Assembly (NCBI GenBank): GCA_003280965.1
Contig: QCDI01000002.1
Location: forward strand, 99,712 to 163,711
Direction of reading: 5' to 3'
DNA length: 64,000 nucleotides
DNA from: Prochlorococcus sp. AG-355-B18
GTDB lineage: Bacteria; Cyanobacteriota; Cyanobacteriia; PCC-6307; Cyanobiaceae
Below, one piece after another: positions 9,926 to 57,080 of the stretch (positions are counted from its first letter, which is position 1; each line of letters starts with the position of its first letter). A model generated the notes under the pieces. The model saw nothing but the letters and a program-made list of their open reading frames with translations. It searched no databases and was not told where the DNA came from. The position numbers and the translations under genes are program-made.

Positions 9926-9939
9926 TGTGGAATGTTCAA
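9926..9939 (-). repeat. 14-nt dispersed motif, copy 1 (TTGAACATTCCACA in csoS1 sense), 18 nt upstream of the csoS1 ATG
   Basis: Exact match to 10157-10170 and to the reverse complement of 56952-56965. Confidence 0.9.
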
Positions 9940-9944
9940 TTCGA

Positions 9945-9974
9945 AGAATGCTTCATTAAGTACTTATAAGTCAA
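9945..9974 (-). promoter_or_regulatory. Putative sigma70-type promoter of the csoS1-rbcL-rbcS operon
   Basis: TTGACT (9974-9969) - 18 nt - CATTCT (9950-9945); predicted TSS near 9938-9940. Confidence 0.5.
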
Positions 9975-10094
9975 GCGTTTTCGATAAAATCTCCATTAAT
10001 GTTTTTTCTATCATTCATAAGTTAAACTTATCACCCTTGGTACTATTGATATGTCAATACTTATGCAAATTAGTTAGTGCATCAAAACATACTG

Positions 10095-10123
10095 TTGTGT
10101 TAAGAAAAAATTTACATTATGTT
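10095..10123 (+). promoter_or_regulatory. Putative promoter for the structured RNA at 10130 / ham1-like gene
   Basis: TTGTGT (10095-10100) - 17 nt - TATGTT (10118-10123); predicted TSS near 10130, at the foot of the stem. Confidence 0.45.
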
Positions 10124-10129
10124 ATTTCT

Positions 10130-10188
10130 GTACGAGGCAGGCCCTGTCTACACAGGTGTGGAATGTTCAACCTTTCCTGTCTCCGTAT
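10130..10188 (+). ncRNA. Candidate structured sRNA or leader RNA
   Basis: GC-rich island; outer stem TACGAGGCAGG (10131-41) / CCTGTCTCCGTA (10176-87) with one bulge and one G-U; inner hairpin CCTGT-ctac-ACAGG; motif copy 2 (10157-10170) lies inside the loop. Confidence 0.55.
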
Positions 10189-10234
10189 CTAGCTTTGAAG
10201 TAAGATAATAACCTCAATAAATTTATTTATTATT

Positions 10235-10819
10235 TTGAACCATCCAGTCCTTACTATTGCGAGTGGCAACAAAACTAAAGTTTCTGAAATTTCTGCAATG
10301 CTGGATGTTTTGTCTTTAAGGGTTCAGAAGCAACCAGAATATTTAAATGTTGAAGAGACTGGAGACACATATTTTGAGAATGCACTTTTAAAAGCAAAAG
10401 CAGCTGCTTTAGAGACAAAAACCTGGGCATTAGCTGACGATTCTGGACTTGAAGTAGATGTTTTAGATGGTCGACCTGGCATATATTCTGCTCGATATGC
10501 CAAAAACAACTCTGAAAAAATTAAAAAATTAATTAATGAACTTTCTGATAGTCCTTACAGGAGCGCGAGATTTATAAGTTGTATGGTTTTATGTGATCCC
10601 TCAGGAAACTTAGTGAAGGATTCAACTGGAATATGCTGGGGAGAAATTCTTAAGACTCCAAAATATCCAAATGGGGAGTTCGAATCTGTTTTTTGGGTAA
10701 AAGAAGCTAACTGTGTTTACGGTGAGCTATCACAATCACAACTAAGTAAGTTAGGAAGCAGGGGTAAAGCCGCCAGAATTATGTCACCTTACCTCAAAAA
10801 AGAAATTGGTTTAAATTAA
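10235..10819 (+). CDS. Ham1/RdgB-family NTP pyrophosphatase-like protein (carboxysome-locus associated, divergent)
   Basis: ASGNKTK, ENALLKA, DDSGL, PGIYSARY present; C-terminal GFGYDP and SHR signatures altered. Confidence 0.88.
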   Translation: MNHPVLTIASGNKTKVSEISAMLDVLSLRVQKQPEYLNVEETGDTYFENALLKAKAAALETKTWALADDSGLEVDVLDGRPGIYSARYAKNNSEKIKKLINELSDSPYRSARFISCMVLCDPSGNLVKDSTGICWGEILKTPKYPNGEFESVFWVKEANCVYGELSQSQLSKLGSRGKAARIMSPYLKKEIGLN

Positions 10820-10826
10820 AAAATTC

Positions 10827-11597
10827 TCAATAATTTGAAATTACATCAATTGCTCTTATAGCAGCAGCAGCTGCTTCTTCTACATCTCCTTCTTTCCCAG
10901 CGAGAGTTAATCTACCAAAAGCTCCAACTGCTTTTACATCTACAACAGTTATATTTGATGCTTTTTCTGCTTCATTTGCTGCTTTTAAGACATACCCAGC
11001 TGGTTCAGTTTCTAATATAAACATGCTCATTCCAGATTGAATCATTGATCCACTTCTGTTTTGTCTATTTATTAAAACAGCATGGTCTGGAGTAATAGCT
11101 CGAATAACTTCTGTCCAACTTGTTGAAGGTTTGGTTCTTTTTCTAACTTCACTTCCAATAGCATCTAGAACAACATCCCCAGAATGTAAAACAGTACTTT
11201 GATCTTTGTGATAAAGAGCAAGAGAGCCAAATGCTCTTTCAACAATCATCTGACCAAGTCTTACATTACTTGCTTTTAAGGCAATATCAGTGACTCTATG
11301 AACGGCCATCCCTGGTGAAACTTCCATCCATAGGCATGAATCTCCAGGTATAGGTAAAAAACCCCTACTAACCGTCCCCATATATGCAGCTAATTGAGGT
11401 TGAAGAGAATCTAAAAAAACATATGTTCTCAACTCAATTTGCTCAACTTGACTTGCTTGTCTGGACACCAAAGACTTTTCTGAATCAGTTGTAATAAAAC
11501 AGCTTGCACCACTGGCCTGAGATTGCACCTCAGATCCCGTGACTAGGGAACTTCCTTTTTTTCGTTCCCCTCTGTTTAAACTAGAAGTTGGTTCCAT
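10827..11597 (-). CDS. csoS1D: Tandem-BMC shell protein CsoS1D
   Basis: [29 protein letters not shown]; double BMC domain; position upstream of the cso operon. Confidence 0.96.
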
Positions 11598-11694
11598 TCA
11601 CGCGACTATAACGGATAATGGTTCATTTTTTCTATTAAATTTACTTGCATGCTTCCAACAAAACGATAACTTCAAGTAAAAGATATGCATTTTT

Positions 11695-12063
11695 ATGGGA
11701 ACTTCTCAAAAAAAAGAACCAAATGTTTCTGGTACTGAAAAAGAATTAACTCCTGATCAAACTCTTGGATTAGTTAGCCTTAGCTTGATGCAAAAACTAT
11801 CTCAGAAAGACCCATCTTTTAGTTGGTTAGAAGAAGATAAAATTGAAAAAGTAAATCTTAAGAACCTTAGAGATAGATTGGAGTTAACCCAATTAGCTAT
11901 AAATACTGGAGCACCTTTAACCACTTCAGAAGTGACAGCTTTAATTGGTGCAAAGCCCGGTAAATCTAAGTTAGAAAGAGCAGGATTATTAGCAACTAAA
12001 ATAGCCAGAAATGTGTGGAAGCTTTCGAAAATAAGTCAAGGAAATTCCTTCTACAGAAATTAA
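11695..12063 (+). CDS. Conserved hypothetical protein
   Basis: 122 aa ORF filling the gap between csoS1D and chlN; C-terminal LTTSEVTALIGAKPG...VWKL pattern is HTH-like. Confidence 0.75.
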   Translation: MGTSQKKEPNVSGTEKELTPDQTLGLVSLSLMQKLSQKDPSFSWLEEDKIEKVNLKNLRDRLELTQLAINTGAPLTTSEVTALIGAKPGKSKLERAGLLATKIARNVWKLSKISQGNSFYRN

Positions 12064-12211
12064 AATACGCCCCAAAAGTTTTTTTCATAATTCCCATTTA
12101 AGTATTTAAACATTCATATAAGTTTTTTAAATGTGTTTATTTTGTAAAGGAACTTATTAATTACTTTCTTAAATTAAAAAGTGTATGCAAGCTTGAAATA
12201 TAAGCTCTTGA

Positions 12212-13477
<1,266 letters not shown>

Positions 13478-13482
13478 AAACT

Positions 13483-15054
13483 ATGGAATTAACTCTTTGG
13501 ACGTATGAAGGACCACCACATGTTGGTGCCATGAGAATTGCCTCGTCAATGAAAGACATTCATTATGTGCTTCATGCCCCCCAAGGAGATACATATGCAG
13601 ATCTCCTCTTTACAATGATCGAGAGGAGGGGACAAAGGCCTCCAGTAACCTATACAACTTTTCAGGCTAGAGACCTTGGAGGCGATACAGCTGAATTAGT
13701 GAAGAAAAATATTAAGGAAGCGGTTGAACGATTCAAACCCAAAACTCTTTTAGTCGGAGAAAGTTGTACAGCAGAACTTATCCAAGACCAACCTGGAGCT
13801 CTCGCGAAAGGGATGGGGTTTGACATACCGATTGTGAATCTTGAATTACCTGCCTATAGCAAGAAAGAGAATTGGGGGGGCTCAGAAACCTTTTATCAAT
13901 TAATAAGAACTCTTTTAAAAGAAAAAGTAAGCTATTCAGAGAAAATAAGTCCTCTAAGGTGGAAGGAATATGGGCGTAGACCAAAAGTCAATATACTTGG
14001 TCCTTCATTACTAGGGTTTAGATGCAGAGATGATGTAATCGAAATCCAACGCATACTTTCAGAGCAAGGAATAGATACAAACGTAGTTGCTCCATTAGGT
14101 GCTAGTCCAGATGATATTGGAAGACTAATTGATGCTGAAATAAATATTTGTCTTTATCCAGAAATTGCGGAAGCATCGTGCGAATGGCTTAAACGGAACT
14201 TTGGAATGAAATATACAAACACTATTCCAATTGGAATAAAAAATACAATCGAATTTATAAATGAAGTTCATAAGAAATTAGATCTTCCTTTGACGAATAA
14301 AAAAGAATTAGAAAATAAATCAAAACTTCCTTGGTACTCAAAATCAGTTGACTCAAACTATCTAACTGGCAAAAGAGTTTTTATTTTTGGTGATGGAACA
14401 CATGCAATTGCAGCGGCCAAAATTGCTAAGGAGGAATTGGGTTTTGAAGTAGTTGGTCTTGGAACGTACAGCCGGGAGATGGCGAAGCAAGTAAGAGCTA
14501 CTGCAAAAAATATAAATATAGAAGCTTTAATTACTAACAATTATCTAGAAGTAGAAGATGCCATGAAAAAAGCCGCCCCTGAATTAGTTTTAGGAACCCA
14601 AATGGAAAGGCATAGTGCAAAAAGACTCGGCATTCCATGTTCAGTAATTAGTACTCCAATGCATGTTCAAGATGTTCCTGCAAGATATAGTCCACAGATG
14701 GGATGGGAAGGGGCAAATGTAATTTTTGATGACTGGGTACATCCCCTAATGATGGGCTTAGAAGAGCATCTTATTGATATGTTCAAACATGATTTTGAGT
14801 TTGTTGACGGTCATCAAAGCCATTTAGGACATACAGCGACAAAAACAAAGGATTTTATAAAGTCTGACGAGAAAAAAGAAAAAAATAGTATGGAGGGAAT
14901 TATTTGGACTGAATCTGGTAGAGCTGAATTAACAAAAGTTCCTTTTTTTGTAAGAGGTAAAGTCAAAACTAATACCGAAAAATACGCAATCTTGAGAGGA
15001 ATTCCAGAAATAAGCGATGAAACTCTTTACGACGCGAAAGCATATTTCAGCTAA
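13483..15054 (+). CDS. chlB: Dark-operative protochlorophyllide reductase subunit B
   Basis: [20 protein letters not shown]-terminal PCP_red domain ([10 protein letters not shown]). Confidence 0.98.
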
Positions 15055-15243
15055 TTTGTACTAATGATTTATAACAAAGTCATGAGTATTTTCACTCATA
15101 ATCTAATAGATTTAATCCTAAAAATTCAGTTATAAGAACATATTTCCGGCTTTTAATACAATTAAATACATATTTGTTTAGAAACATATTCCATGTGTAT
15201 TTACACTGCAAGAATATAAATAATAATGTGTTTAAAGCTTTAA

Positions 15244-16131
<888 letters not shown>

Positions 16132-16137
16132 TCTAAA

Positions 16138-17148
16138 TTAATCTAATCCAACCAATTTGCTTGTTAAATCATAAGTTTGTTGAGAGGTCTTCTTATCAAT
16201 TATTCTTTTTGACAACTTTTGAGAAAAAGCTTTTCTACCAGTTTTTTGACGATTTCCCCAGCTCCAATGGACTGATGGTTTAGCAAATTCTTTATAAGTT
16301 GCCACTTGAGCGACCCTCTCTCCTGCCAGTCTTTGTGAAACATATCCTTTTGTTATAAATTTTTGAAATATCGGGAAAAGAAATCTAAATAACCAAGGTG
16401 TATCTCTAAAAAGTTTTGTATCAGCAACACATCCAGGATATAGAGAATTTACAATAATCTTCTCTGCAGGATATCTTTTTGATAATTCCTGAACGGTAAC
16501 CATATTACAAAGTTTACTATCCTTATAAGCCTTACCAGGTTTAAATTTCTTTCCATTCGCCATACTTATTGGAGATAAAAAACCATTTTTGAATCCAGAT
16601 AAATCTCCCAAATCAGCTGGGGCAGGGATGGGGATCCTTCCTCCAAGTTCTGAATAATTAGCCGTAACAGTCCCTAATACTGTAATTCTTGGCTTAAATA
16701 AAGTTGATTTGCCATTTAAAACAATTTCTCTTTCAGAAGATAAAATATTTTTCACAAGTAGGTTTATCATAAGAAAATGCCCAAAATGATTTACTGCCAT
16801 AGAGTTTTCAAACCCTTGTGCAGACCTTTCAGGTCTCTTTAGTCTCGGTTTATAAACTGCTGCATTACAAATAAGAGAATTTATCGGCTTTTTAAATCTT
16901 TCTAATATTTCATCGCAACCTTTTCTCACATCATCCAAATTAGAAAGATCTATTTCTATAAAGTGAACATTTTCAACTTCCTCTTTTGTCAAGGATTCCT
17001 CAGCTACTTTTATAGCTCTTTTATTTGATCGATTAACTGCTATAACCTCCCATCCAAATCTTAATAGAGGTTTTAGAGTATTTAATCCAACTCCTGAAGT
17101 TGTTCCTGTTATTAGGACTAAACCCTTAATGTTCTTACTCACTAGCAA
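16138..17148 (-). CDS. por: Light-dependent protochlorophyllide oxidoreductase (POR-type SDR)
   Basis: TGTTSGVG, CNAAVY, KAYKDSKLCN, YPGCVADT, FPIFQKFITKGYVS; true start may be GTG 17142. Confidence 0.9.
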   Translation of the reverse strand: MLVSKNIKGLVLITGTTSGVGLNTLKPLLRFGWEVIAVNRSNKRAIKVAEESLTKEEVENVHFIEIDLSNLDDVRKGCDEILERFKKPINSLICNAAVYKPRLKRPERSAQGFENSMAVNHFGHFLMINLLVKNILSSEREIVLNGKSTLFKPRITVLGTVTANYSELGGRIPIPAPADLGDLSGFKNGFLSPISMANGKKFKPGKAYKDSKLCNMVTVQELSKRYPAEKIIVNSLYPGCVADTKLFRDTPWLFRFLFPIFQKFITKGYVSQRLAGERVAQVATYKEFAKPSVHWSWGNRQKTGRKAFSQKLSKRIIDKKTSQQTYDLTSKLVGLD

Positions 17149-17196
17149 AAAAGTTAATTGAAAAATGAAAAGTAGAATGATTCAAAACCATCCTTA

Positions 17197-17544
17197 TCAA
17201 CGCCATATTACTCTGATAATGTCCCTAGAAATTATTTGATCCTGATCCTTCATAAATCTTTGCTCACCTTCAGAAGAAAATAAATTATCAAACTCATCTG
17301 TTAAAACGATAAATCTATAATTTTCGTATAAAAATGAGTCTTCAATTTCCCTTAATCTGGTCAACCTTACTTTAGAACTATAGCCAAGTTTAATCAGGCT
17401 TATTATTGCTAAAAGGGAAAAGCTAATTTTTATAATTAAAAAAATTGTTGATACAAAATTATCCTGTTTCTGTTGTCTTTTTATAAATCCAGACCCTAAA
17501 GATTTTTTGTGGAAAATACTATTTTTATAAAAAGATTTTGACAA
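17197..17544 (-). CDS. Conserved membrane-anchored protein (single TM plus coiled coil; resembles the cyanobacterial Slr1601-type family)
   Basis: One hydrophobic helix followed by heptad-like segment; downstream of psaM; family assignment from recall only. Confidence 0.6.
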   Translation of the reverse strand: MSKSFYKNSIFHKKSLGSGFIKRQQKQDNFVSTIFLIIKISFSLLAIISLIKLGYSSKVRLTRLREIEDSFLYENYRFIVLTDEFDNLFSSEGEQRFMKDQDQIISRDIIRVIWR

Positions 17545-17629
17545 AGTAAGTACTTGATATTTTTACTGAATAAAATAATTCAGTCTTACTTTATTATTAC
17601 CTTATAAATTTTAAATTTTCTAATAGACT

Positions 17630-17734
17630 TTAGTTCCTACCTAAACTAATTCCTAGTCTTAAGGCTAAAACTCCTGCATGCATAACAACTATGAGGCTTA
17701 ATGCAATAAGATTTATTGTTTGAGTTGGCTCCAT
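17630..17734 (-). CDS. psaM: Photosystem I subunit XII
   Basis: Manually translated 34 aa [42 protein letters not shown] signature; below the ORF-track cutoff. Confidence 0.92.
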
Positions 17735-17835
17735 GGAAAAAAATTTATTTCCTATATTCTCCACCGAAAAGAGAAGATTTGAAACACTATTACAAAATGA
17801 TGTTACGTAATTAACAAATTGAAAGAAAAAATTTA

Positions 17836-18591
17836 TTGAAAATTATCATAAATAAACCTACAAAGTTAATTTTGGGAATTGAAAATCAGGCTTTAATTTT
17901 TTCAACAAATAATTTACCTGGATTTGATCAAATGGCTTTAGATTTAAATTCTTTAGATCAGACAATTTCGAATCCTGAAATAATTCTCACATTGAGGTTC
18001 TACTATTGGACTGGGGATTGGCTTTCAATTGGCTATCACCAAAAGGAAATTCCTCTTCATTGGAAAAATTTATTATCAAACGGGGAAATTAATATTGTTA
18101 GACGTCCCTCTGGAGGGGGTGCTGTTCTGCATTCAGGAGGCATAACATATTCATTAACATTTAAAAAAACTTACTATAAAGTCTTAAGTTATGAAATGGT
18201 TAATAATTGGTTAATTAAAAGTTTTAGAGAATTAGGTCTAAACTTACAATATGGTAATTTACGAAAATCAAGCATTAAAACAAATTGTTTTGGGACTTCA
18301 TTAATTTCTGATTTAGTTGATCAGGATGGGTTTAAAAGGATAGGAAGTGCGCAATATCGTAGAAAAGGTGCATTCCTTCAACATGGAGAGATTCAAACAA
18401 ATCCTTCACAAGACTTATGGTTCAAATTATTTAAAGAAGAAGCTCCACCAAAAATAAATCTAGGCCTCACAAATGATGAAATAGTTCAACATTTAAGAAA
18501 TTCATTCCTAGAGAATAAATCAAATATAAAGTTCAAAAATATTGCCATAGACAATAATATATTAAAAAATTTTCGTGACACGAATTCTTAA
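17836..18591 (+). CDS. Lipoate-protein ligase A / octanoyltransferase family protein
   Basis: [31 protein letters not shown]. Confidence 0.9.
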
Positions 18592-19811
18592 AGATCTCCT
18601 TTCTGCTTCATTGAATTAATTATTCTTGGAAGTTCAATTCCCAAGGGATATTGATTTTTATAATTTAATTTGTTGACAATTTCTGAAGGAAAATTAAATC
18701 CTAATTTATTCAATACAAAGTTTCCTATTTTAGATCTATCAATTATCCCTAAAGGGATATCTGCAGAATTGAGAACCAATATAAAACCTTTACCTGTTTC
18801 TTCAATTCTTTCTATAGTTTTCCATAATTTATCGTTAGCATACACACTTTCAAAACTATCAATTGGCTTCTTAAAATCCCCAACGAAGTGCCGTTCCCAT
18901 TTTTTTATGGAGACAGTTTTTAAAATATTCTCATCAATAAAACCAGTCCATCTTCCATTATTAGTAACAAAAAAATATTTATCTGATTCATATTTTTTAT
19001 TTTTTATTAATCTGTTCAACTCTGCGAAATTAGAATCGAATTCAATTTTTTGTAAAGGCTTTAATTTAAGCTCAGAAACTTTACTAAATTTAAGTATGTT
19101 TTCAATTTTAAAAAATTGACTTTCTGATTTTGAAGAATTAACTCCAAACAATCCTAAGAAAGAAAGAATAAGACCATAATAAAAGTTAAATCTAAACGAA
19201 CAAATTATTCCAAATATAAGAACTAAAAAAGATAAAGATAAATTTACTTTATTGAGAAAGTTTCTTCCTTTGTTTTTACTACCTGAGAAATGCCAAATAA
19301 TACTTTTTAATAAATTTCCTCCATCTAAAGAACCTATTGGAATCAAATTTAAAAAGCCTAATAATAAATTTAATATACCAACTCTAGAAATTATATTGAT
19401 GAATATTATTTCTTGAGATGCACTGTAATTACTAATTAAAAGTAGGATAAATGCTGTAATAAAACATAATAGAGGTCTAACAATTGCGATTTTTATATTA
19501 CCTATAGCAGTTTCACAATACTTATCTATTTGTAAAATAGCTCCAAGAAAATAAAAAGTTATTTTTTTTATTTTTACTCCCTGATTTAAGGAAACATAGG
19601 TATATATAACCTCATGGGAAATAATTGAAGATAATAAGAAAAAAGAAGTTAAAAAACCTATAACCCAAGCTTCTTTATTATTAAATACATCACCAGAAGA
19701 TAAATTAACTTGATTACTTATGCTCCATGAGAATAAAAAGAGAATAACAAACCAATAGGGATGAATTTTGAAGGGAATTCCCCATATTTTAAAAATTTGC
19801 CAACTTCTCAA
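18588..19811 (-). CDS. Site-2 (M50) membrane metalloprotease-like protein with degenerate CBS region
   Basis: GIPFKIHPYW start, NLIPIGSLDGG motif; HExxH reads HEVIY. Confidence 0.88.
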   Translation of the reverse strand: MRSWQIFKIWGIPFKIHPYWFVILFLFSWSISNQVNLSSGDVFNNKEAWVIGFLTSFFLLSSIISHEVIYTYVSLNQGVKIKKITFYFLGAILQIDKYCETAIGNIKIAIVRPLLCFITAFILLLISNYSASQEIIFINIISRVGILNLLLGFLNLIPIGSLDGGNLLKSIIWHFSGSKNKGRNFLNKVNLSLSFLVLIFGIICSFRFNFYYGLILSFLGLFGVNSSKSESQFFKIENILKFSKVSELKLKPLQKIEFDSNFAELNRLIKNKKYESDKYFFVTNNGRWTGFIDENILKTVSIKKWERHFVGDFKKPIDSFESVYANDKLWKTIERIEETGKGFILVLNSADIPLGIIDRSKIGNFVLNKLGFNFPSEIVNKLNYKNQYPLGIELPRIINSMKQKGDL

Positions 19812-19866
19812 AAATAATCTCCGCTATATTTAGCAATAATATTAATTTTACATACAGGATAATGAT

Positions 19867-20532
19867 ATGCCCAAGACTAATACTTTAGTTAAAATTTGTG
19901 GATTAACATCAGAAGAACAAGCTCTTCAAGTAGCTAAATTAGGAGCGCATGCTATTGGCATTATTTCGGTTGAAGAGTCACCAAGGTACGTATCACCTGA
20001 AATTAAGAAAAAAATATTTAAAACCTTAGAAAGTTTTTATCCAAAAATCCATAGGGTATCTGTTGTGCAAAATAGTCCTGTAGATTTAATTATCAAAAAT
20101 TTCTTAGGCAACCCAAGTGAAACTATCATTCAATTGCATGGTGATGAGGATATTGATTACTGTAAAAAAATAAGAGAAAAAATTCCAAATATTGGCCTAT
20201 GGAAGGCTTTCAGGATAAAAACGGAAAAAGACTTGGATAAAATACAACCTTTTGAAAATTTTGTAGATGCGATACTACTTGATTCTTGGAGTGAAAAAAC
20301 TTATGGAGGTTCAGGGAAAAAAATAAATTCTAACTATCTAAAGAATCTGCAATTTAGTAAACCTTGGTGGTTAGCAGGCGGAATATCAATTGAATGGATT
20401 AATGAAATTCTTATAGATATCAAACCTGATGGGCTAGATATTTCTAGTAGTGTTGAAATTTCTCCGGGTCAAAAAGATCTAAAAAAAACTGAAGAACTTT
20501 TTAATTTTTTAAAAGGGATTAGTAATTATTAG
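19867..20532 (+). CDS. trpF: Phosphoribosylanthranilate isomerase
   Basis: VKICGLT, IQLHGDE, GGSG, LAGGI, DISSSVE. Confidence 0.96.
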   Translation: MPKTNTLVKICGLTSEEQALQVAKLGAHAIGIISVEESPRYVSPEIKKKIFKTLESFYPKIHRVSVVQNSPVDLIIKNFLGNPSETIIQLHGDEDIDYCKKIREKIPNIGLWKAFRIKTEKDLDKIQPFENFVDAILLDSWSEKTYGGSGKKINSNYLKNLQFSKPWWLAGGISIEWINEILIDIKPDGLDISSSVEISPGQKDLKKTEELFNFLKGISNY

Positions 20533-21259: not shown

Positions 21260-21412
21260 AAAATTCTTGACAGAAAAATGTATGCAACTTAATTAACTGT
21301 ATCTTCCAAAAGCTTAATTGCTTATACACTATATCACATTCTCTTGTTTAATCGGGTTCACGTAGCCCTAAAAAAAATCACTTTTTAAGGATTAAGAAAA
21401 GAAAAAGAATGT

Positions 21413-44748: not shown

Positions 44749-44992
44749 CTTTTTTAAAATCCTGATTATGAATTATCTCGTTTCCTTGAGATAAGGGTCT
44801 GCCAATCAAAATGCTTATTGAAGGTAATAAAATTGTCAAAAAGGCAAAAATAATACCTAAAGATGTTACTGATAGACTCCTTATACTTAAGGGGTCATCA
44901 TCATCTCTTTCAAAATCACTTCTAGCAGAATCAAGAGAAGATTCTTCGCTTAATTTACTTTGAATAAACTGCTTTGATTTCGTGTAACTCAA
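44738..44992 (-). CDS. Small hypothetical membrane protein
   Basis: 84 aa, acidic N-region then one TM; overlaps the ppa start. Confidence 0.6.
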   Translation of the reverse strand: MSYTKSKQFIQSKLSEESSLDSARSDFERDDDDPLSIRSLSVTSLGIIFAFLTILLPSISILIGRPLSQGNEIIHNQDFKKDGP

Positions 44993-45088
44993 GAACTCTT
45001 AATTGGTAAATATTAAGGAGATAATTAAACATCATTATCCTACATTCAAAATGTCAATAAATCAAAACATTGATAGTTGACTTTTTAA

Positions 45089-45445: not shown

Positions 45446-45612
45446 AAGAAAATTTTAGTAGTTAATGAACTTTTAAAAGAGTTTGAACTTCATTACTGAA
45501 GAAGTTAGCAGAAAGAATATTTTTAGACTATCCGCGTTGAGGGACTCAAGACACTTTAGATTCTTTTTTCATCTTAATTGATAAAATTAATTATCATAAA
45601 TTATTTTTTTGT

Positions 45613-47415: not shown

Positions 47416-47442
47416 GGCTTATTTTTTTTTGGGAGCTAAGTT

Positions 47443-47880
47443 ATGTTACTGAAATGGACATCAAAATTATTTTTTAAGAATCTTACCAAAGCTATATCTT
47501 TTGCAATATCCCTAATTGTTGTTTTTACACTATTTAGTTCTCCTTCCATAGCTGCAAAAACAGCTATGACAGGTGACTATACAAAGGATACAATTTCAGT
47601 TGTTAAAACATTACAAACAGCTGTTGATACTCCAAAAGATTCTCCAAATAAAGATGAAGTAAGAAGTGAAGCTCTTACACTCATAACTGACTATATTTCC
47701 AGATATAGAAATAGAGGGATGGTGAATAAAACGCAATCATTTACCACAATGCAAACAGCATTAAATGCTATGGCAGGTCATTACAAAAACTTTGCAAGTA
47801 GACCTTTACCAGATAAACTTAAAGAGCGTTTAACCAAAGAATTTTCTCTTGCTGAAAAAATGGTTCTAAGGGAAAGTTGA
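47443..47880 (+). CDS. psb27: Photosystem II assembly factor Psb27
   Basis: MTGDY..DT, YISRYR, SFTTMQTALNAMAGHY...RPLP. Confidence 0.95.
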   Translation: MLLKWTSKLFFKNLTKAISFAISLIVVFTLFSSPSIAAKTAMTGDYTKDTISVVKTLQTAVDTPKDSPNKDEVRSEALTLITDYISRYRNRGMVNKTQSFTTMQTALNAMAGHYKNFASRPLPDKLKERLTKEFSLAEKMVLRES

Positions 47881-47907
47881 TACAATTCATTTACTTTTTA
47901 AAAGTAA

Positions 47908-49272
<1,365 letters not shown>

Positions 49273-49287
49273 TTTAGTTCCAAATTA

Positions 49288-50289
49288 ATGAAGGAATCCT
49301 TTAGGCATTTTGAACATAAAAAAATTGATCTGATTGGTTTGGGCAACGCAATAGTAGATATTATTGTAAATATTGAAGATGAGTTTCTTGAGATAAATAA
49401 TCTGGATAAAGGATCAATGAATCTTATTAATTCTGATGAATCTCAGAGATTGTTAGAAAATTGCAAAGTGATCAAACAAATTTCAGGTGGGTCCTCAGCA
49501 AATACTGTTGTTTCTTTAGCAGAATTAGGTAATCATGTGCAGTTTATAGGAAGAGTGAAAAATGATCAATTTGGGAATTTCTTTTCTGACGATATAAAAA
49601 AAAGCAACACTATATTTAATACTCCACCTACTATTGAAGGTGCTCCAACAGCTCATTCGATCATTTTGGTTACACCTGATGCACAAAGAACTATGTGCAC
49701 TTACCTGGGAGCATCTGTAGAATTTGAGCCAAAAGACATTGACTTTACTGTAATTAAGGAAAGTAAATACTTATATTTAGAGGGATATTTATGGGACAGC
49801 GAATTAGCTAAAAAAGCTTTTATTAAAGCCGCCCAAATTGCAAAACAATCTAATACAAAAATAATCCTTTCTTTGTCTGATTCATTTTGTGTAGATAGGC
49901 ATCGTAAGAGTTTCTTGGAATTAATTTATGAATATGTAGATATTGTTTTCTGTAATGAATCCGAAGTATTAAGTCTATTTAAAAATGATAAATTAGCAAG
50001 CTGCCAAGAAGAGCTATCTTCTTTATGTGAATTAGTCATTGTAACTCTTGGAAGCAATGGTTCTCTGATCGTTAACAAAAATAATGTTGAAATAATTGAG
50101 TCAATAACGAAAGGTAAGATTATTGATACTACAGGAGCGGGAGATATCTATGCGGGAGGATTTATCCATGGATTAATAAACAATTGTTCCCTCAAAAAAT
50201 GCGGAGAGATAGCTTCAATTTGTGCGGGGCAAATAATTACGCAATTAGGATCTAGAACAGATATTGATCTTAAAGAGTTAATAAAATAG
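49288..50289 (+). CDS. PfkB-family carbohydrate/adenosine kinase
   Basis: GNAIVD, GGSSAN, RTMCTYLG, DTTGAGD. Confidence 0.92.
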   Translation: MKESFRHFEHKKIDLIGLGNAIVDIIVNIEDEFLEINNLDKGSMNLINSDESQRLLENCKVIKQISGGSSANTVVSLAELGNHVQFIGRVKNDQFGNFFSDDIKKSNTIFNTPPTIEGAPTAHSIILVTPDAQRTMCTYLGASVEFEPKDIDFTVIKESKYLYLEGYLWDSELAKKAFIKAAQIAKQSNTKIILSLSDSFCVDRHRKSFLELIYEYVDIVFCNESEVLSLFKNDKLASCQEELSSLCELVIVTLGSNGSLIVNKNNVEIIESITKGKIIDTTGAGDIYAGGFIHGLINNCSLKKCGEIASICAGQIITQLGSRTDIDLKELIK

Positions 50290-50295
50290 ATTTAA

Positions 50296-50601
50296 TCAAA
50301 TAGTCTTATTCAACCAATCATAATATTTCATCTCAGCATGGTATTTTTTGTAAATAATTTGAGGGACATCATACGTGGAATTTTTATTTACGAAATCAAT
50401 TAAACAATCTTTAAATTCTAGTTTACTTTTTATTGTGATTTCAAACTCTTTAGTTTCTTCAATATCATCATCCCACTTATAAATTGAAAAAATTTGCCTT
50501 ATCGAAACACAAGCAGCAAGTTTATTTTGTATTAGTAATTTAGCCATTCGCAAAGCATTTGCGTTACTTGATTCAGTTGTGATCATAACTAATACTTCCA
50601 T
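50296..50601 (-). CDS. cutA: Divalent-cation tolerance protein CutA
   Basis: LAACV, SIYKW, YDVPQII, YYDW. Confidence 0.92.
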   Translation of the reverse strand: MEVLVMITTESSNANALRMAKLLIQNKLAACVSIRQIFSIYKWDDDIEETKEFEITIKSKLEFKDCLIDFVNKNSTYDVPQIIYKKYHAEMKYYDWLNKTI

Positions 50602-50613
50602 ATAAACTAAACA

Positions 50614-51411
50614 TCAATATTTTTTAATTATGTGATTTATCAAATTGTGATATTGATCAAAAGAGTAAGAATAATCATTTTTAACTTTCGGCCTTTTAAC
50701 CAAAAATAACTTCATCTTACTTCCAGAAACTATACTCTCCCAGTTTTTCTGAGAATAACTTCCAGATTCTCTGCATAGAACATAATCTATCTCCCAAAAA
50801 TCACAAAGTTTTTTTTCTAAAATGCTTTTATTATTTTTACTCGGTTCAAGTATGGCTATGTTTGAATTTTTAATACATGATCCAAAAGCTTTAGTTATAC
50901 TTTCATAAGTTGGAAGTACCCTTGTAAATACATTTGCTTTACAGTTCATATAATAACTAGCTGTATCGTTAAGGAATCTTGATCCTATTGCAAGAAGAAT
51001 ATTCTTATTTTCTATATCAACATTATTTATATCCTTTAAATGATCAATATAAAAAAAATTATTAGTTTTATTTATTAGAGATTTCCTCTCAAATAGTAAA
51101 AGAGGAGTATTAATTTCTTTACATGCATTATTAAGATTTTTAGAAATTATTACGGCAAATGGATGAGTAGCATCGACAACGCATGTGATTTTATTTTTAT
51201 TTATGAAATCAATTATTTGATCTTTATTATTTAATTTACCCGTAATGATATGTAACTTTGGATTATCAATATAAGCTTGCCCTGCTTTATAACTTAAAAC
51301 ACTTGCAAAGACTGAATAATTAAGTTCAATAAGCCTATTAGCTATTACAGGTCCATCCGAAGTTCCTGATAGGATCCAAACATTTTTATAGCAATTTTCT
51401 TGATTCTGCAT
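50614..51411 (-). CDS. cobK: Precorrin-6A/cobalt-precorrin-6A reductase
   Basis: LSGTSDG, VVDATHPFA, RVLP, RESG, VKRP. Confidence 0.92.
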   Translation of the reverse strand: MQNQENCYKNVWILSGTSDGPVIANRLIELNYSVFASVLSYKAGQAYIDNPKLHIITGKLNNKDQIIDFINKNKITCVVDATHPFAVIISKNLNNACKEINTPLLLFERKSLINKTNNFFYIDHLKDINNVDIENKNILLAIGSRFLNDTASYYMNCKANVFTRVLPTYESITKAFGSCIKNSNIAILEPSKNNKSILEKKLCDFWEIDYVLCRESGSYSQKNWESIVSGSKMKLFLVKRPKVKNDYSYSFDQYHNLINHIIKKY

Positions 51412-51439
51412 CAGTATGTCTTTAATTAAATAGTAAATA

Positions 51440-51865
51440 ATGAATCATTGTTTAATTCAGGCGGTAATCAATAGCGCTCCCAAAATGAGGTATACCAAAG
51501 AAAACCAAACTCCAATTGCAGAAATGATTGTTAATTTTAAAGGATTACGTAGTGAAGATCCAACTAGAAATCTCAAGATCATAGGATGGGGAAATATTGC
51601 CCAAGAAATGTTAGATGAACTAAAGGAAGGGCAAAATATTGTTATTGAGGGACGTCTAAAGATGAATTCTGTCACTAGAAAAGACGGAACAAAAGAAAAG
51701 CAACCAGAACTTACAGCTTCAAAGATTCATCAAATCTCACCAGTTGAACTTATTAATTCTGATCAAAAAGAAAATAACGAGTCATTTGATAATAAAGAAA
51801 CCACCAAAAAATCTAGTTGGGATAGCTCACCTTTAGTGCCCGAAGTTGACGAAATACCCTTTTAA
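51440..51865 (+). CDS. Single-stranded DNA-binding protein-like (cyanobacterial divergent SSB type)
   Basis: P.MRYT, VIEGRL OB-fold pattern; acidic C-terminal tip DEIPF. Confidence 0.88.
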   Translation: MNHCLIQAVINSAPKMRYTKENQTPIAEMIVNFKGLRSEDPTRNLKIIGWGNIAQEMLDELKEGQNIVIEGRLKMNSVTRKDGTKEKQPELTASKIHQISPVELINSDQKENNESFDNKETTKKSSWDSSPLVPEVDEIPF

Positions 51866-51866
51866 A

Positions 51867-52049
51867 TCAATTATCAACATTATTTTCCTGAACACTTATA
51901 ATTAATTTGCTTATTTTTCTTTCTAGCGAGGCAAGTTCGCTTCTGATTTCTGGCCATTTACCCTTATCAAGATTTTCTAATAGCCAAGCTCTGTCTTGAT
52001 CAAGTTTAAAAATTAAATCTCCTTGATTTGCAGTATTGGGATCTTGCAT
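51867..52049 (-). CDS. Small conserved hypothetical protein
   Basis: 60 aa, LDQDRAWLL..LD.G.WPE.R.ELA.LER; fills the gap exactly. Confidence 0.7.
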   Translation of the reverse strand: MQDPNTANQGDLIFKLDQDRAWLLENLDKGKWPEIRSELASLERKISKLIISVQENNVDN

Positions 52050-52091
52050 AATACTTGTTAGCCAACTTAAAATTTATTTTACTAAATCAAA

Positions 52092-52622
52092 ATGAAGAAA
52101 TACTTATCACCTGGAAATTTAATCGTAACAGCTGGGGGTATATTAGCTTTTGTTGGAATGACTGCTTATTTTACAGACTCAGTAAATTTAAGTGTACCTA
52201 CTTTTTTTTATGGAGTACCTATTTTTCTAATTGGATTAGGTTTAAAGACTTCCGAAATTCCACCTGTAGAGTTGTTTGACAAGACAAATTTTGCGACAAA
52301 TAAATTTAATAGGCCAAAAGAATTAACAGCACTAGTAAAAGATGTTACGAGATGGAGGTACGGGATTAAAGCTCATCTTGAATCTTCATTAGAATCATTA
52401 AATTTGTGGGACGAGGATAATCCACCTCAATTAAAAGAAATAGAAGAAATTACAAAGGAAGAAAAAAATGGTCTCAGAATGCGTTTCGAATTAAACGCTA
52501 TCCCCATAGAAAAATGGATTGAAAAACAAGAAAGATTAAACAGGTTTTTCGTCAAAGGTCTTGAATCAGAATTTATTATCGACGATAATAAAAAAGAATT
52601 TGATTTTATTCTCTTTTATTGA
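52092..52622 (+). CDS. Conserved membrane protein (DUF2854-like)
   Basis: Two N-terminal TMs, FFYGVP..LGLK.SE, KDVTRWRYG..AHL. Confidence 0.8.
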   Translation: MKKYLSPGNLIVTAGGILAFVGMTAYFTDSVNLSVPTFFYGVPIFLIGLGLKTSEIPPVELFDKTNFATNKFNRPKELTALVKDVTRWRYGIKAHLESSLESLNLWDEDNPPQLKEIEEITKEEKNGLRMRFELNAIPIEKWIEKQERLNRFFVKGLESEFIIDDNKKEFDFILFY

Positions 52623-52686
52623 ATATAAGTATATATTTGTAAAAACCTAATTTCTCAATTCAATCAAGTTTTAATGATTTTTAATA

Positions 52687-53538
52687 ATGAATGATTCTCA
52701 AAGAGTATCAATATTAAGCGAAGCACTTCCATATATACAAAGTTTCTCAGGTAGAAAAATTGTTATCAAGTATGGTGGTTCTGTTATGGAGGACGATGAT
52801 TTAAAAAATGCTTTTTTTAGAGACATAGCACTTTTATCAACAGTGGGGGTATGTCCAATAGTAATTCATGGAGGTGGACCCGAGATTAATAATTGGTTAA
52901 AGAAATTAGAAATATCTCCTAAATTTGAAAATGGATTAAGAATTACTGATCAAGAAACAATGGATATCGTCGAGATGGTTTTAATGGGTAGGGTTAACAA
53001 ACAAATTGTAAAAGGGATTAATAAAACTGGATCCTTAGCTGTAGGAATATCAGGACTTGATGGTAACTTAATTCAATCTAGAGAATTAGGAGATGGGAGC
53101 CATGGGTTAGTGGGAGAGGTTACAAAAATAAATCCTGAGATCTTAGACCCTCTTATTTCTAAAGGATATATCCCTATTATTTCTAGTATCGGATCAACTA
53201 TGGATGGTATTTCCCATAATATTAATGCGGATTTTGTTGCTGGAGAAATTGCTGCTGCAATAAATGCAGAAAAACTTATTCTTCTTACTGATACTCAAGG
53301 TATTTTAAAAGAAAAAGATAACAAAAATAGTCTTATTGAAAAGACGAACCTCAAAGAAGCAAGAGATTTTATTGATAAAAAGATTGTGACTGAAGGTATG
53401 ATTCCAAAGACAGAATGCTGCATAAGAGCTTTAGCACAAGGAGTCAAAGCAGCTCACATAATCGATGGAAGAGTAGAACATTCATTACTTCTTGAGATTT
53501 TTACAAATTCTGGAATTGGTACAATGATAGTCGCCTAA
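52687..53538 (+). CDS. argB: Acetylglutamate kinase
   Basis: IKYGGS, HGGGP, NINAD, GMIPK. Confidence 0.98.
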
Positions 53539-53541
53539 CCT

Positions 53542-54651
53542 ATGAAAACTTATGAGCAAGTTTTAGAAAAAGTAGAACTTGCTTTAGCTAAAGGTGAGTA
53601 TAATTATTGTATTGAATTTCTTTTGCCATTAATTGAATCGTTTCCTTTACCAAGCAAAGAGGGAGTAAATTTAAGAACAATTTTAATTACTGCTCTTTGT
53701 GGTATCAATAAAAAGGAGGAGGCTAAAAGATTTTGTAAAGAACTTCTAAAATCTTACGATAATAAGACGAGAGAAAATGCAAAATATTTGATGGAAGTAA
53801 TAGATTCTCCTGAAATTAAAAAGCCAGAAAATTGGAACGTACAGTTTGAAAGCGACCTATCACTAAATAAAAAATCTTTTAACTCACTACGCAAAAAAAG
53901 AGATGTATTGAAGAAAAAGAAATTTATTAATGTTACTGATACTCCAACTGGTGAAACAAAACCCTTTCAGAAAGGCTTTTCACTGATCATTTTTTTAATA
54001 CTATTATTATTAATTCCACTTTTAAGTGGCTGCGTTAAAATTGAGGATACCCTTAATCTTAGTGAAGTTGATTCAATAACCAATAATTTAGTGATAGAAA
54101 GTAAATACATAAAGAAATTTCCTTGGCAATCAAAATTTGAGGAGAAAATAAAAGATATTTTTCCTGACGCAGAAATTGAACAAGGCGAATCAACCTTTTC
54201 TTTGAAACATAAAAATCTCAATCTAGAAGATACAAAGCAAGTTCTTAAATTAACCCAAAATACCGCTGGAGAGTTAGCGGGAGGATCTACAAACATAGAA
54301 ATTAATACTAGCCAAAAAAACTTCATTTTTTTTAAAAAATACTTTTACAAGGTAGATTTGGATCTTAACTCTATTCAAGATCTTGATAATTTAGAACTCA
54401 TCTTCAAAATTATTCACCCTAATAAAGCTATCCTTACTAATAAAAATAATTCAAATTTAGAAATCACAAAAAATCTAATAATTTGGAAATTAAATCCGAG
54501 TCAGATAAATACTCTTGAATTTTCGTTCTGGAGCCTCAACAAACTTTTGATTGGGATATCTACTATTTCGATGATTGTAGTATTTGCTTATTTATTAAGA
54601 TTCTATAGATTTAAATTAGGTACAGACTTGCCACAACTTCCATCAAACTAA
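53542..54651 (+). CDS. Membrane protein with N-terminal TPR-like helices and DUF3153-like domain
   Basis: Helical N-terminus, internal TM ending in LLSGC, C-terminal TM. Confidence 0.7.
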   Translation: MKTYEQVLEKVELALAKGEYNYCIEFLLPLIESFPLPSKEGVNLRTILITALCGINKKEEAKRFCKELLKSYDNKTRENAKYLMEVIDSPEIKKPENWNVQFESDLSLNKKSFNSLRKKRDVLKKKKFINVTDTPTGETKPFQKGFSLIIFLILLLLIPLLSGCVKIEDTLNLSEVDSITNNLVIESKYIKKFPWQSKFEEKIKDIFPDAEIEQGESTFSLKHKNLNLEDTKQVLKLTQNTAGELAGGSTNIEINTSQKNFIFFKKYFYKVDLDLNSIQDLDNLELIFKIIHPNKAILTNKNNSNLEITKNLIIWKLNPSQINTLEFSFWSLNKLLIGISTISMIVVFAYLLRFYRFKLGTDLPQLPSN

Positions 54652-56928
54652 TTACAATTCAGTTGGATTAACATCAATTGTTAAAAAAACATTTTTTGGA
54701 ATAAGTTTCCATAATATTGATCTATCAGGTAAAGGTATCTTTGTTCCTTCAGGACCATGTATTAATATCTGCCATCTAAATTTTTTACCGACTTTAGCAA
54801 TTAAACTAGGAGCCGGGCCAATTAATTTCCAGTTCTGTTTCTCACAAAAATTGTGTAGATATTTCGCTAATTTTATTGCAATTGATTCAGTTAATTCATA
54901 ATTTTCACCTGATAATTTAAGAAGGCAAATCTTGCAAAAGGGAAATAAATTAGCATCTTTTCTCAATCTTGAGTTTTCAATTAAGAATCTCTCATAATTT
55001 CTTTTCTGAAGATACGAAATTACTGGGTGGTTAGGTTTATATGTTTGAAAAATTACTTTTCCTTTTTTTTGAGCCCTGCCTGCCCTGCCAGCTAATTGTA
55101 AAAACAATTGTAATGATTTTTCTTCTGCCGAAATATCTGGGCGATGAAGCAACCCATCTGCTGCAATAACTACTGAAAGAGTAATATTGGGAATGTCAAT
55201 CCCCTTTGCCAACATTTGAGTTCCTACAAGAATATCAGCATCACCTTTAGAAAACTTTGAAAGAATATCTCTATGACCATCCTTTACTGAAGTTGTATCT
55301 CGATCAAAGCGAAGCACTCTTAAGTCAGGGAATTCTTCATTTAAAAACTCTATTACCCTTTGTGTCCCTATTCCAAAAGGTTTAAAGGCAGTTGAATGAC
55401 AATCAGGGCAACGATTGATCAATCTCGATTTATGATCACACCAATGACAGCTTAACCATTTTTTTCCTTGTGAACCGAGATGCACTGATAAAGGAACATC
55501 ACAGTTGGGGCAATTTATTAAATATCCGCAATTTCTACAACTTAAAAACCCACTATGCCCCCTCCTAGGGATCAAAATTATTGCCTGCTCATTTTTTAAG
55601 CGTAGTTGAGGAAGCAATTGCAATAATTCATTGGAAAAAATTTTCATATTTCCCTTCTTGAACTCATTACGCATATCAATAATTCTTATTTCAGGAATCT
55701 CATTACTTGATATCCTTTGAATCATTCTTACCAATTTAAAATTCTTTTCAAAAATACACTTTTTCCAGGTCTTCATTGATGGGGTTGCACTCCCAAAAAT
55801 TAATTTTGCAGAATTCCTTTTTACTATTTGAATAGCAATCTCTCTTGCGTCATAACAAGGCATAGGACTATCCTGTTTGTATGAAACATCATGTTCTTCA
55901 TCCATTATTATCAATCCTAGATTTTTAATTGGAAGAAAAACTGCAGACCTTGTTCCTATTACTATTAAAGGTTCATTAGTATTAATAATTTTCTTCCAAA
56001 CTACAGTTCTATGAATGGAAGAACAGTTACTATGATATTCGTAAACAACATTTTTAAATCGTCGACAAAACCTATCGATAAGTTGAGGAATTAGTCCAAT
56101 TTCTGGGGCGAGTATCAAACAACTTTTTTTCTTAAGAAATTGATCTTCAACAATTCTCATATAAACTTCTGTTTTACCTGAACCTGTTTCGCCCCATAGA
56201 AGTAACGCCTCTCCTGGTTTCATTGTTTGAAATTCTTGAAATGCAATTTTTTGCTCATTTGTAAGATTTGGTTTTTTCGTTAAGTTATGATCATCTAAAA
56301 AGGAATTTAGTTTAGTATTCATATTTTTTTTTCTTTTAGATTTAACAAGGTATTTCTTACTGACCATTGAGTTAATAAGAGTGTAACCAAAACCAGACTT
56401 TATTAATTCACTTTGCCAATTACCTTTTTCAGGCAAAGTATTCATTAAAAAAAATTCTTTTTTAGTTAATCCATTTTTCTTAATATCAAATTCTTTTTTA
56501 GTTTCAATCCATATTTGATCTTTTAAACCTTGAGAAATATTCTTATATTTACCAATCCAGCCAGGAGGAAATGCAGTTTTAAACATTTTTAAATTACTTA
56601 CCATATAAACAGAGGCTAAGGACTCTATCCATTCTCTCCAAGAGTCCTCAAATATTTTTTTCTGCAAAATACTTTCAACAAACAAATATCTCATACTTTT
56701 TCCTCCAGAAATATTTGATTCATTTTTGTTAAATGTCGAAAAGTTTTTTTTGGAGATCACCAACCCATTTAATAATCTCCCTCTTAGTCTCACATTTACA
56801 ATATCCCCAACTTCTGCACCAAGATTATTTCCATCTAAATAGTAAAAGCTTTCATTACTACTACCTATATCAAGCAAAATTTCCAATTTGTAGGAGATTT
56901 TTAATAACTGATTACTTGCCGGCTTCAA
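54652..56928 (-). CDS. priA: Primosomal protein N' helicase
   Basis: GETGSGKT, DEEH, SATPS, four CxxC pairs, QLAGRAGR. Confidence 0.97.
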   Translation of the reverse strand: MKPASNQLLKISYKLEILLDIGSSNESFYYLDGNNLGAEVGDIVNVRLRGRLLNGLVISKKNFSTFNKNESNISGGKSMRYLFVESILQKKIFEDSWREWIESLASVYMVSNLKMFKTAFPPGWIGKYKNISQGLKDQIWIETKKEFDIKKNGLTKKEFFLMNTLPEKGNWQSELIKSGFGYTLINSMVSKKYLVKSKRKKNMNTKLNSFLDDHNLTKKPNLTNEQKIAFQEFQTMKPGEALLLWGETGSGKTEVYMRIVEDQFLKKKSCLILAPEIGLIPQLIDRFCRRFKNVVYEYHSNCSSIHRTVVWKKIINTNEPLIVIGTRSAVFLPIKNLGLIIMDEEHDVSYKQDSPMPCYDAREIAIQIVKRNSAKLIFGSATPSMKTWKKCIFEKNFKLVRMIQRISSNEIPEIRIIDMRNEFKKGNMKIFSNELLQLLPQLRLKNEQAIILIPRRGHSGFLSCRNCGYLINCPNCDVPLSVHLGSQGKKWLSCHWCDHKSRLINRCPDCHSTAFKPFGIGTQRVIEFLNEEFPDLRVLRFDRDTTSVKDGHRDILSKFSKGDADILVGTQMLAKGIDIPNITLSVVIAADGLLHRPDISAEEKSLQLFLQLAGRAGRAQKKGKVIFQTYKPNHPVISYLQKRNYERFLIENSRLRKDANLFPFCKICLLKLSGENYELTESIAIKLAKYLHNFCEKQNWKLIGPAPSLIAKVGKKFRWQILIHGPEGTKIPLPDRSILWKLIPKNVFLTIDVNPTEL

Positions 56929-56944
56929 AACTTTTTCTTAATAT
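56916..56944 (+). promoter_or_regulatory. Putative sigma70-type promoter firing toward rpoD, overlapping the priA start
   Basis: TTGCCG (56916-21) - 17 nt - TAATAT (56939-44); predicted TSS G56951. Confidence 0.55.
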
Positions 56945-56950
56945 TGGATT

Positions 56951-57080
56951 GTTGAACATTCCACAAAGTGTTTTTTGCACATTGTAAGTATCCTGCTCTT
57001 AAGGGAGACATGAAGCTTTGATCATTGACTGAAAATTCAAAAGTGATCTGCCTGTCTGAGAAATCCCAAGACTTTTTACT
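56951..57080 (+). ncRNA. Candidate structured sRNA or long rpoD leader beginning with motif copy 3
   Basis: Starts GTTGAACATTCCACA; hairpin 56963-56985; nested stems TCTT/AAGA, GGGA/TCCC, GACA/TGTC, GATCATT/AGTGATC (56997-57071); followed by a T-rich run. Confidence 0.5.

Follow-up and report, generated by a model that had tools for sequence, protein, structure and literature searches.

The window analysed here, 64,000 nucleotides (nt) of Prochlorococcus sp. AG-355-B18, contains the csoS1-rbcL operon for the alpha-carboxysome and Rubisco and, divergently from it and upstream of a HAM1/RdgB-like gene, a candidate small RNA (sRNA) of ~60 nt. Our comparison points to a conserved sRNA, apparently expressed and apparently unnamed, for which a target is sharply predicted where the alpha-carboxysome operon begins. 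We propose, with a probability of about 0.65, that this RNA is made from its own promoter, pairs with the csoS1-rbcL mRNA's 5' end and acts on it; we infer the pairing in the cell as well as the direction and sign of the effect. The small A+T-rich genome and its gene set suggest a high-light Prochlorococcus.

In the initial annotation, a 14-nt word was taken to connect the loop of an sRNA with the 5' ends of two transcripts, that of the carboxysome operon and one upstream of rpoD. The exact search and the map of open reading frames (ORFs) bear out its three intergenic copies, at 9926-9939 (+, copy 1), 10157-10170 (+, copy 2) and 56952-56965 (-, copy 3), which all lie between ORFs, with csoS1, the HAM1/RdgB-like gene, priA and rpoD as neighbours. 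The coding part of the window is free of the word, as had been claimed, and no further match appears in the window with up to two mismatches allowed. It is the only 14-mer occurring at least three times in the window, one tandem repeat excepted, and between copies 2 and 3 the match in the window sequence extends to 15 nt. The genome-wide rarity of the word holds in number, since the genome (1.58 Mb, 31.5% G+C) has four exact copies and none with one mismatch, against a Markov expectation of ~0.02 (0.015-0.021 exact copies per genome, a post hoc figure); the fourth copy, however, is coding. Located outside the window (G000:C1:137866-137879; L001:2067-2080) and in the same sense as the sRNA loop, it spells the codons L-W-N-V-Q at the end of an ABC-transporter gene and is probably codon chance. 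We set it aside as a part of the system because it is coding and variable, complete genomes carrying 2-4 copies of the word. The exact word is present in 58 of the 61 genomes of the genus, where a reversed control gives none, and in one of 141 genomes from other genera of the family. Because it is so rare outside the genus, variants of the arrangement were looked for further out.

The csoS1 upstream regions of 68 family genomes were compared, and in 28 of them a second GAACATTCC-like word lies 230-306 nt upstream of the first, within inverted repeats. Folds of single sequences give a closing stem (P1), a side hairpin (P2) and a loop, and copy 2 is the loop of this conserved three-way-junction RNA of ~60 nt. 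In a plain MAFFT alignment 82% of the 481 cells are paired, above all 500 shuffles and the slid controls, and 9 of the 18 pairs have changes on both sides. The model-fitted alignment (73 distinct rows), which leans towards its own model, has 85% of 1,270 cells paired and two-sided changes in 15 of the 18 pairs, and none of 500 shuffles is as high. The first covariance model gives one sRNA copy per genome. With the refined model, the sRNA is detected as a single copy in 80 of 150 family genomes (E < 0.001), and one weak match (E 6e-4; L339, G432:C18:45597-45680) appears among 147 genomes of other families. The model perhaps misses some copies, as G146 has the motif yet escaped the search. Across relatives the RNA is thus conserved and its stems covary, in keeping with the structured RNA initially suggested. 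As to known families, none in Rfam 15 reaches the gathering threshold in the window or in 20 related loci, only chance-level E-values being returned, so the sRNA has no match there. Two genomes of one genus (G106 and G076; L065, L076) keep remnants of the closing stem and have lost the loop motif, which looks like ongoing decay.

The pairing with csoS1 was evaluated in 74 genomes, i.e. all model-positive genomes analysed minus G153, which has two loop mismatches, plus G146; six genomes of the genus were left out. The selection needed the core word with at most one mismatch, and high pairing at the first 9-10 positions is therefore partly built in. Of the first 14 nt of the csoS1 mRNA, 14 can pair with the loop in 51 genomes, 13 in 21 and 12 in two. 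The sRNA lies 1.6-1.9 kb from csoS1 in 26 genomes of seven genera, still upstream of HAM1, and in all 26 of these distant cases (>1 kb from csoS1) 13-14 of the 14 nt pair. Departures from pairing, counted as genus-position cases, comprise 11 that are G-U-compatible, one of the reverse type and 13 plain mismatches. Beyond the core, cognate partners pair at 5.58 of 6 positions compared with 5.14 for shuffled partners (0 of 2,000 shuffles), a test that overstates the case because two-sided changes are few and partly shared by kin. Cofolding yields a binding energy of ~-13.6 kcal/mol for the pair in the window; across 38 of 38 genomes the values range from -4 to -18 kcal/mol. When 6,639 seed-match candidates from the whole genome were ranked, the best duplexes after the own locus of the sRNA are the rpoD-side site and then csoS1; the third-ranked duplex is only 0.1 kcal/mol weaker than that with csoS1.

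Co-occurrence of the two partners is consistent with this pairing. Among the 150 genomes presence is nested, as both the RNA and the exact csoS1 motif occur in 77, the RNA together with a motif carrying one mismatch in three, only the motif in 21 and none of these in 49 (21, 2, 3 and 10 when counted by genus), counts which ignore kinship. When read directly, the csoS1 5' end is within one mismatch in 38 of 38 genomes with the sRNA versus 12 of 30 without it; the csoS1 -35 box is kept in all 68, with or without the sRNA.

A structured RNA of unrelated role, whose match to csoS1 arose by chance or remains from a short duplication long ago, would have to account for the same data. Kin share both features, so their co-occurrence does not amount to independent trials, and independent two-sided changes are few. 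However, 23 genera retain the 14-nt match, over a range of locus G+C from ~37% to 69% and despite rearrangement. Both states occur within several genera, and decay of the csoS1 end is confined to genomes in which the sRNA was not found. We regard such a coincidence as very improbable.

The word could alternatively be a protein-binding site, either as DNA operators at the two starts plus an upstream site or as single-stranded RNA, with no RNA-RNA pairing. This would fit the location of copies 1 and 3 at start sites in the same orientation, as well as the persistence of the csoS1 motif in 21 genomes in which no sRNA was found. The distance between copies 1 and 2, however, varies from ~230 nt to 1.9 kb without kept spacing or phasing, which disfavors the shared DNA site that the initial annotation had offered as its alternative. 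Moreover, copy 2 is within covarying stems, its strand yields the complement, so that one RNA-binding protein could not read both, and the departures favour G-U. A protein site therefore seems improbable to us.

Base changes, promoter and published starts together indicate the strand of the sRNA. G-U cells outnumber A-C cells by 81 to 36 in favour of the plus strand (two weak pairs excluded, in an alignment fitted on that strand). A TAnnnT box just upstream is found in 72 of the 74 genomes on the plus strand, compared with six on the other strand and two in a shifted window; for the box combined with a TTG -35 element the numbers are 48, 0 and 0, in windows that were picked after inspection of the data. 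The sRNA is therefore likely to be made from the plus strand, since G-U exceeds A-C, the -10 box is on that strand and the published starts agree. A strict consensus promoter scan did not detect the sRNA promoter.

In strain MED4, a published start 102 nt upstream of HAM1 is listed in three of four tables, and a second one 18 nt upstream of HAM1 (PMM0548) likewise in three of four; the csoS1 start is 44 nt upstream of the annotated start and 196 nt from the 102-nt start, the latter distance being given by two of the four (PMC5607370). Transferred to the window, these offsets place the starts at ~10132-10133 for the sRNA, 10216-10217 for HAM1 and 9936 for csoS1. The plus-strand start that had been predicted near 10130 is consequently matched to within a few nucleotides. 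The csoS1 start predicted at 9939 is shifted, most likely to 9936-9937, and the 44-nt offset would fit the second csoS1 ATG in our sequence, giving 9936 +/- 2. T9938-T9939 are thus probably outside the csoS1 mRNA; both positions are also unconserved. Red Sea reads mapped to Synechococcus CC9605 place the ccmK1 and ham1 starts 194 nt apart (PMC5069720). A 64-nt read peak begins at the 102-nt start of MED4, apart from the HAM1 peak, in one of three peak tables, from libraries that retained the small-RNA fraction (PMC6778093), and on the window its 3' end falls at ~10189, where the closing stem finishes. In one public RNA run, for which contigs only are available, depth changes from 148,171 in the bin 9910-9940 to 1,383 in the next bin, a weak hint at the csoS1 start that says nothing about the sRNA. 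Covariation, promoter conservation, and the published start sites and read peak support a structured RNA on the plus strand whose loop carries the antisense word, as first suggested, and together with the co-occurrence they point to csoS1 as its partner. We consider the csoS1 half of the earlier idea well supported by comparison.

As the start and the 64-nt peak are labelled as HAM1 in the source papers (PMC5607370, PMC5069720, PMC6778093), the pairing might be real but reversed, such that the abundant csoS1 5' end titrates the sRNA or governs how a long HAM1 leader that begins with the structure is processed or read through, resembling an actuaton. The csoS1 start signal can exceed that of the sRNA more than 100-fold, the element is upstream of HAM1 in every locus read, even with csoS1 1.6-1.9 kb away, no terminator was found in the scan of 9880-10300, and both published start tables, in the parts available, assign the start of the element to HAM1. 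On the other hand, HAM1 has its own start 84 nt downstream and a separate read peak in the published data, the element is ~200-700 nt from HAM1 in eight loci, and in many genomes with HAM1 the element was not found. We judge the reversed direction unlikely, at a level slightly above that of a chance match.

According to our proposal, the sRNA would be transcribed from its own sigma-70-type promoter, pointing away from csoS1 without overlap, and its fold would comprise a closing stem, a side hairpin and a loop exposing AAUGUUC. Pairing would start between the loop and the first nucleotides of the csoS1-rbcL mRNA (GAACAUU), which are unpaired, and from this seed it would spread along the G-rich arm of the side hairpin until 14-16 base pairs (bp) are formed. 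In a leader of 29-33 nt, the duplex would occupy the first 14-16 nt and leave ~15 nt up to the start codon, with the effect falling on the 5' end of the carboxysome/Rubisco message. As to the sign, we lean slightly towards dampening, in which the pyrimidine-rich leader used for ribosome loading would be covered or the RNA marked for decay. Protection, in which the 5' end would be shielded from nucleases by analogy with RoxS and FasX, is a less probable but serious candidate. In the MED4 tables the sRNA start is listed in three data sets in which the csoS1 start is weak or unlisted, and not where that is strongest (PMC5607370). This reciprocal listing hints at repression, with values that are unnormalised and small beside the csoS1 peak.

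Several observations weigh against the proposal. Ribosome-site accessibility increases in 11 of 23 genera and decreases in 10, and folding therefore does not indicate the sign; because of this inconsistency, an effect through the 5' end itself or the pyrimidine-rich leader is likelier. The structure was set by hand from single-sequence folds, and RNAalifold on the MAFFT alignment did not recover P1 and P2, returning only six pairs in the motif on the plus strand and none on the minus strand. Folding energy of single sequences preferred the plus strand in only 16 of 28 cases and does not fix the strand. The terminator scan found no terminator-like site in 9880-10300, and the 64-nt peak is listed in a single one of the three tables. 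Start-site signals in MED4 are 216-595 for the sRNA and 90,415 at the csoS1 peak, without normalisation (PMC5607370), a low level that is awkward for a one-to-one regulator and may leave the reverse situation, with the csoS1 end acting on the sRNA or on a long HAM1 leader. The G-U bias could come from C-to-T drift in the leader with P2 holding the G, and two-sided changes between the RNA and its target amount to a handful of events, partly common to kin. Finally, in the 21 genomes with an exact csoS1 motif and no sRNA found, the motif may serve another use, or the model may miss copies.

The second half of the initial idea concerns the region upstream of rpoD, where copy 3 lies within the first 15 nt (56951-56965) of a conserved multi-stem RNA. 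Its core was found in 65 of 70 family loci (L090-L119, L159-L198), all 65 of which have a TTGC...TAnnnT promoter, and the consensus from 24 sequences has 25 pairs, eight of them with two-sided changes. Rfam 15 contains no match to it, and a search of 100 genomes from other families did not detect it; it might be either a leader switch or an independent RNA. The conserved promoter, together with a 172-nt read peak on the rpoD strand in the published tables (PMC6778093), supports the view that copy 3 begins a transcript on that strand. In the four MED4 tables, as available, no distal start is listed; rpoD is given a start of its own, 14 nt ahead of the gene (PMC5607370).

Pairing of the sRNA with the rpoD-side RNA as a general feature is not sustained by these comparisons. 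In other genera the first nucleotides, GUUGRRCAG, pair within their own molecule, and in 34 genomes the mean duplex energy is -11.9 for the rpoD side versus -26.5 for csoS1, with cofold binding near the shuffled control. A GUUGRRYR start is equally common without the sRNA (14 of 27) and with it (21 of 38), the start being off by 2 nt in 10 of 65 rows, which lowers the counts on both sides. It is explained by the own stems of the RNA, and because these had already set it, few changes were needed to reach the rpoD-side match. A single identical loop change occurs in three genera (G107, G084 and G153; L083, L254, L271), costing one csoS1 pair and fitting the ancestral rpoD-side end. A family-wide interaction suggested by this change was ruled out by the binding energies and by the lack of co-occurrence.

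Within the genus the picture is mixed. One sRNA might co-regulate the cso operon and rpoD, or the rpoD-side RNA might act as a sponge for it, both of which are compatible with action on csoS1. The perfect 15-nt match is at the predicted rpoD-side 5' end, the exact core is kept in 62 of 68 sequences, and modelled binding is ~-10 kcal/mol in four of four genomes; as described above, this site and csoS1 give the two best genome-wide duplexes after the own locus, and the published read peak is on the rpoD strand. The ancestral stems that hide the end look lost, leaving the first 12 nt unpaired in a 60-nt model. In contrast, the 5' end is paired in a 200-nt fold, the six exceptions, all from one subclade, carry a central C-to-A change that is uncompensated, with the sRNA loop unchanged in the two genomes read, and the third-ranked duplex is nearly as strong as that of csoS1. 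The lack of a listed distal start and the proximal start of rpoD in the MED4 tables add to these points. The link initially claimed thus survives as the match and its conservation in the genus, and fails at the uncompensated mismatch. We find co-regulation rather doubtful, and probably a genus-limited extra rather than a core target. It is a somewhat more speculative idea, and an unlikely one, that the rpoD-side RNA of the high-light Prochlorococcus-like genus lost its end-hiding stems and became a second partner of the carboxysome sRNA. If this were true, an ancient csoS1 regulator would have been wired into a three-RNA circuit joining Rubisco/carboxysome output to the principal sigma-factor locus, in cells mostly without Hfq.

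Pairing at the extreme 5' end has precedents in RoxS-yflS of Bacillus subtilis and FasX-ska of Streptococcus pyogenes, where it stabilises the mRNA (PMC5419742). The candidate resembles them in its predicted own promoter and published start and in its conserved complementarity to the first nucleotides of an mRNA that it does not overlap. It differs in that there is no likeness in sequence or in Rfam, that the sRNA contributes the G run and the mRNA the C run, opposite to RoxS and FasX, and that it is encoded next to its target; its effect may also have the opposite sign. An intrinsic 3' terminator, usual but not universal in that type, was not found here.

The Prochlorococcus Yfr sRNAs (Yfr1/Yfr10, the Yfr2 family, Yfr8-21, Yfr28/29, Yfr103 and Yfr106-108) are, in the portions of the literature available, likewise short structured RNAs in which a single-stranded motif is conserved. 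In a pull-down, Yfr10 recovered csoS1 and csoS2 RNA (PMC6778093). The motif of Yfr1/Yfr10, ACUCCUCACAC (PMC2518516, in part), is absent from 10130-10190, and the candidate does not belong to that family. None of Yfr8-21 lies between HAM1 and csoS1 in the part of that source available (PMC2518516), and Yfr28 is at ftsQ-ftsZ (PMC7368042, in part). Cluster 87 in the work of Axmann et al. has a score indicating structure (Z -4.24); it was found in two strains, marked as not tested and read as a promoter (PMC1242208). It is probably the same intergenic region; no RNA or target is proposed there in the part available. RNA control of Rubisco expression by complementarity is also exerted by RblR, a cis-antisense RNA on rbcL in Synechocystis (PMC5306279, in part). 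Such an RNA overlaps its target, whereas the present one is divergent, with starts 196 nt apart and up to 1.9 kb elsewhere. An actuaton, in which one start site serves both an sRNA and the following gene (PMC6596454), is comparable in that the start precedes HAM1 by 102 nt, both being on one strand, and the scan gave no terminator; it differs in that HAM1 has a second start and peak, and the sRNA conserves a match to another transcript.

A literature search yielded no description or name for an sRNA pairing with csoS1, the catalogues of Voigt et al. 2014 and Gierga et al. 2012 lying outside the search. Likewise, no description of the rpoD-side RNA was found. The former catalogue reportedly holds 176 non-coding start sites in MED4. 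A term search of PMC3898218 and PMC2897979 gave no relevant mention. A search for phage mimics gave no match in viral contigs with one pattern, and blastn against 50,697 phage records also gave none. A 2026 review of carbon-concentrating mechanisms, available in part, names five protein regulators and treats non-coding RNAs only in general, its main text containing neither 'sRNA' nor 'small RNA' (PMC13249358).

The cso operon encodes the Rubisco and carboxysome of very abundant marine phototrophs. If the proposal is correct, a family-wide sRNA acting on the first 15 nt would be a dedicated post-transcriptional control point, probably tuning carbon fixation. Its target is predicted with unusual sharpness, naturally occurring losses and compensatory variants are available as controls, and the idea is testable in reporters and in tractable marine Synechococcus. 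It is also relevant to the transfer of alpha-carboxysome operons with their native leader.

The features of the two loci are collected in Table 1. The palindrome, as ATNAG-N5-CTTAT, is present in 65 of the 68 csoS1 upstream regions, ~88 nt upstream of the csoS1 start. The RbcR motif published as ATTA(G/A)-N5-(C/T)TAAT lies ~90 nt upstream of a start site (PMC13249358, in part), and by this resemblance the palindrome is a putative RbcR-like site, which could regulate both divergent promoters.

Table 1. Coordinates of features in the window at the csoS1 and rpoD loci
Feature	Position	Strand	Basis
rbcL, Rubisco large subunit	8112-9527	-	NF003252 above cut-off
csoS1, alpha-carboxysome major shell protein	9596-9907	-	NF053791 above cut-off
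First 15 nt of csoS1-rbcL mRNA, predicted target, overlaps copy 1	9923-9937	-	MED4 offset; family conservation
csoS1 promoter, -35 TTGACT, -10 CATTCT	9945-9974	-	TTGAC kept in 68/68 loci
Palindrome ATAAG-N5-CTTAT, between divergent promoters	10017-10031	.	Putative RbcR-like site
sRNA promoter, -35 TTGTGT, 17-nt spacer, -10 TATGTT	10095-10123	+	Boxes; conserved -10
Covariance-model match	10128-10196	+	Model search
Closing stem P1	10130-10141 with 10176-10188	+	Fold, covariation
Candidate sRNA, three-way junction	~10132-10189	+	Folds, covariation, published offsets for ends
Side hairpin P2	10143-10156	+	Fold, covariation
Predicted csoS1-pairing stretch, 15 bp including two G-U, overlaps copy 2	10154-10168	+	Duplex model
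HAM1 -10 box GATAAT (10204-10209) and start (~10216-10217), downstream of sRNA	10204-10217	+	Published 18-nt offset
HAM1/RdgB-like non-canonical purine NTP pyrophosphatase	10235-10819	+	TIGR00042, E 3e-41, just under cut-off
Distal promoter upstream of rpoD, TTGCCG, 17 nt, TAATAT	56916-56944	+	Boxes
Conserved multi-stem RNA between priA and rpoD, ~135 nt	56951-57083	+	Alignment, consensus fold, model match
rpoD, principal sigma factor	57252-58433	+	NF005643 above cut-off

For both HAM1 and priA, the best model scores below its curated cut-off. In G065 (L243:1906-3256), the one locus checked among those with the sRNA far from csoS1, a gene for an Sbt_1 bicarbonate transporter and a P-II-like gene, an sbtA/sbtB-like pair, are located between the sRNA and csoS1. 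At ~63226-63314 of the window, four tandem repeats of 21 nt encode a His-rich HSHDHSS tract in a CobW-family protein, which appears ordinary.

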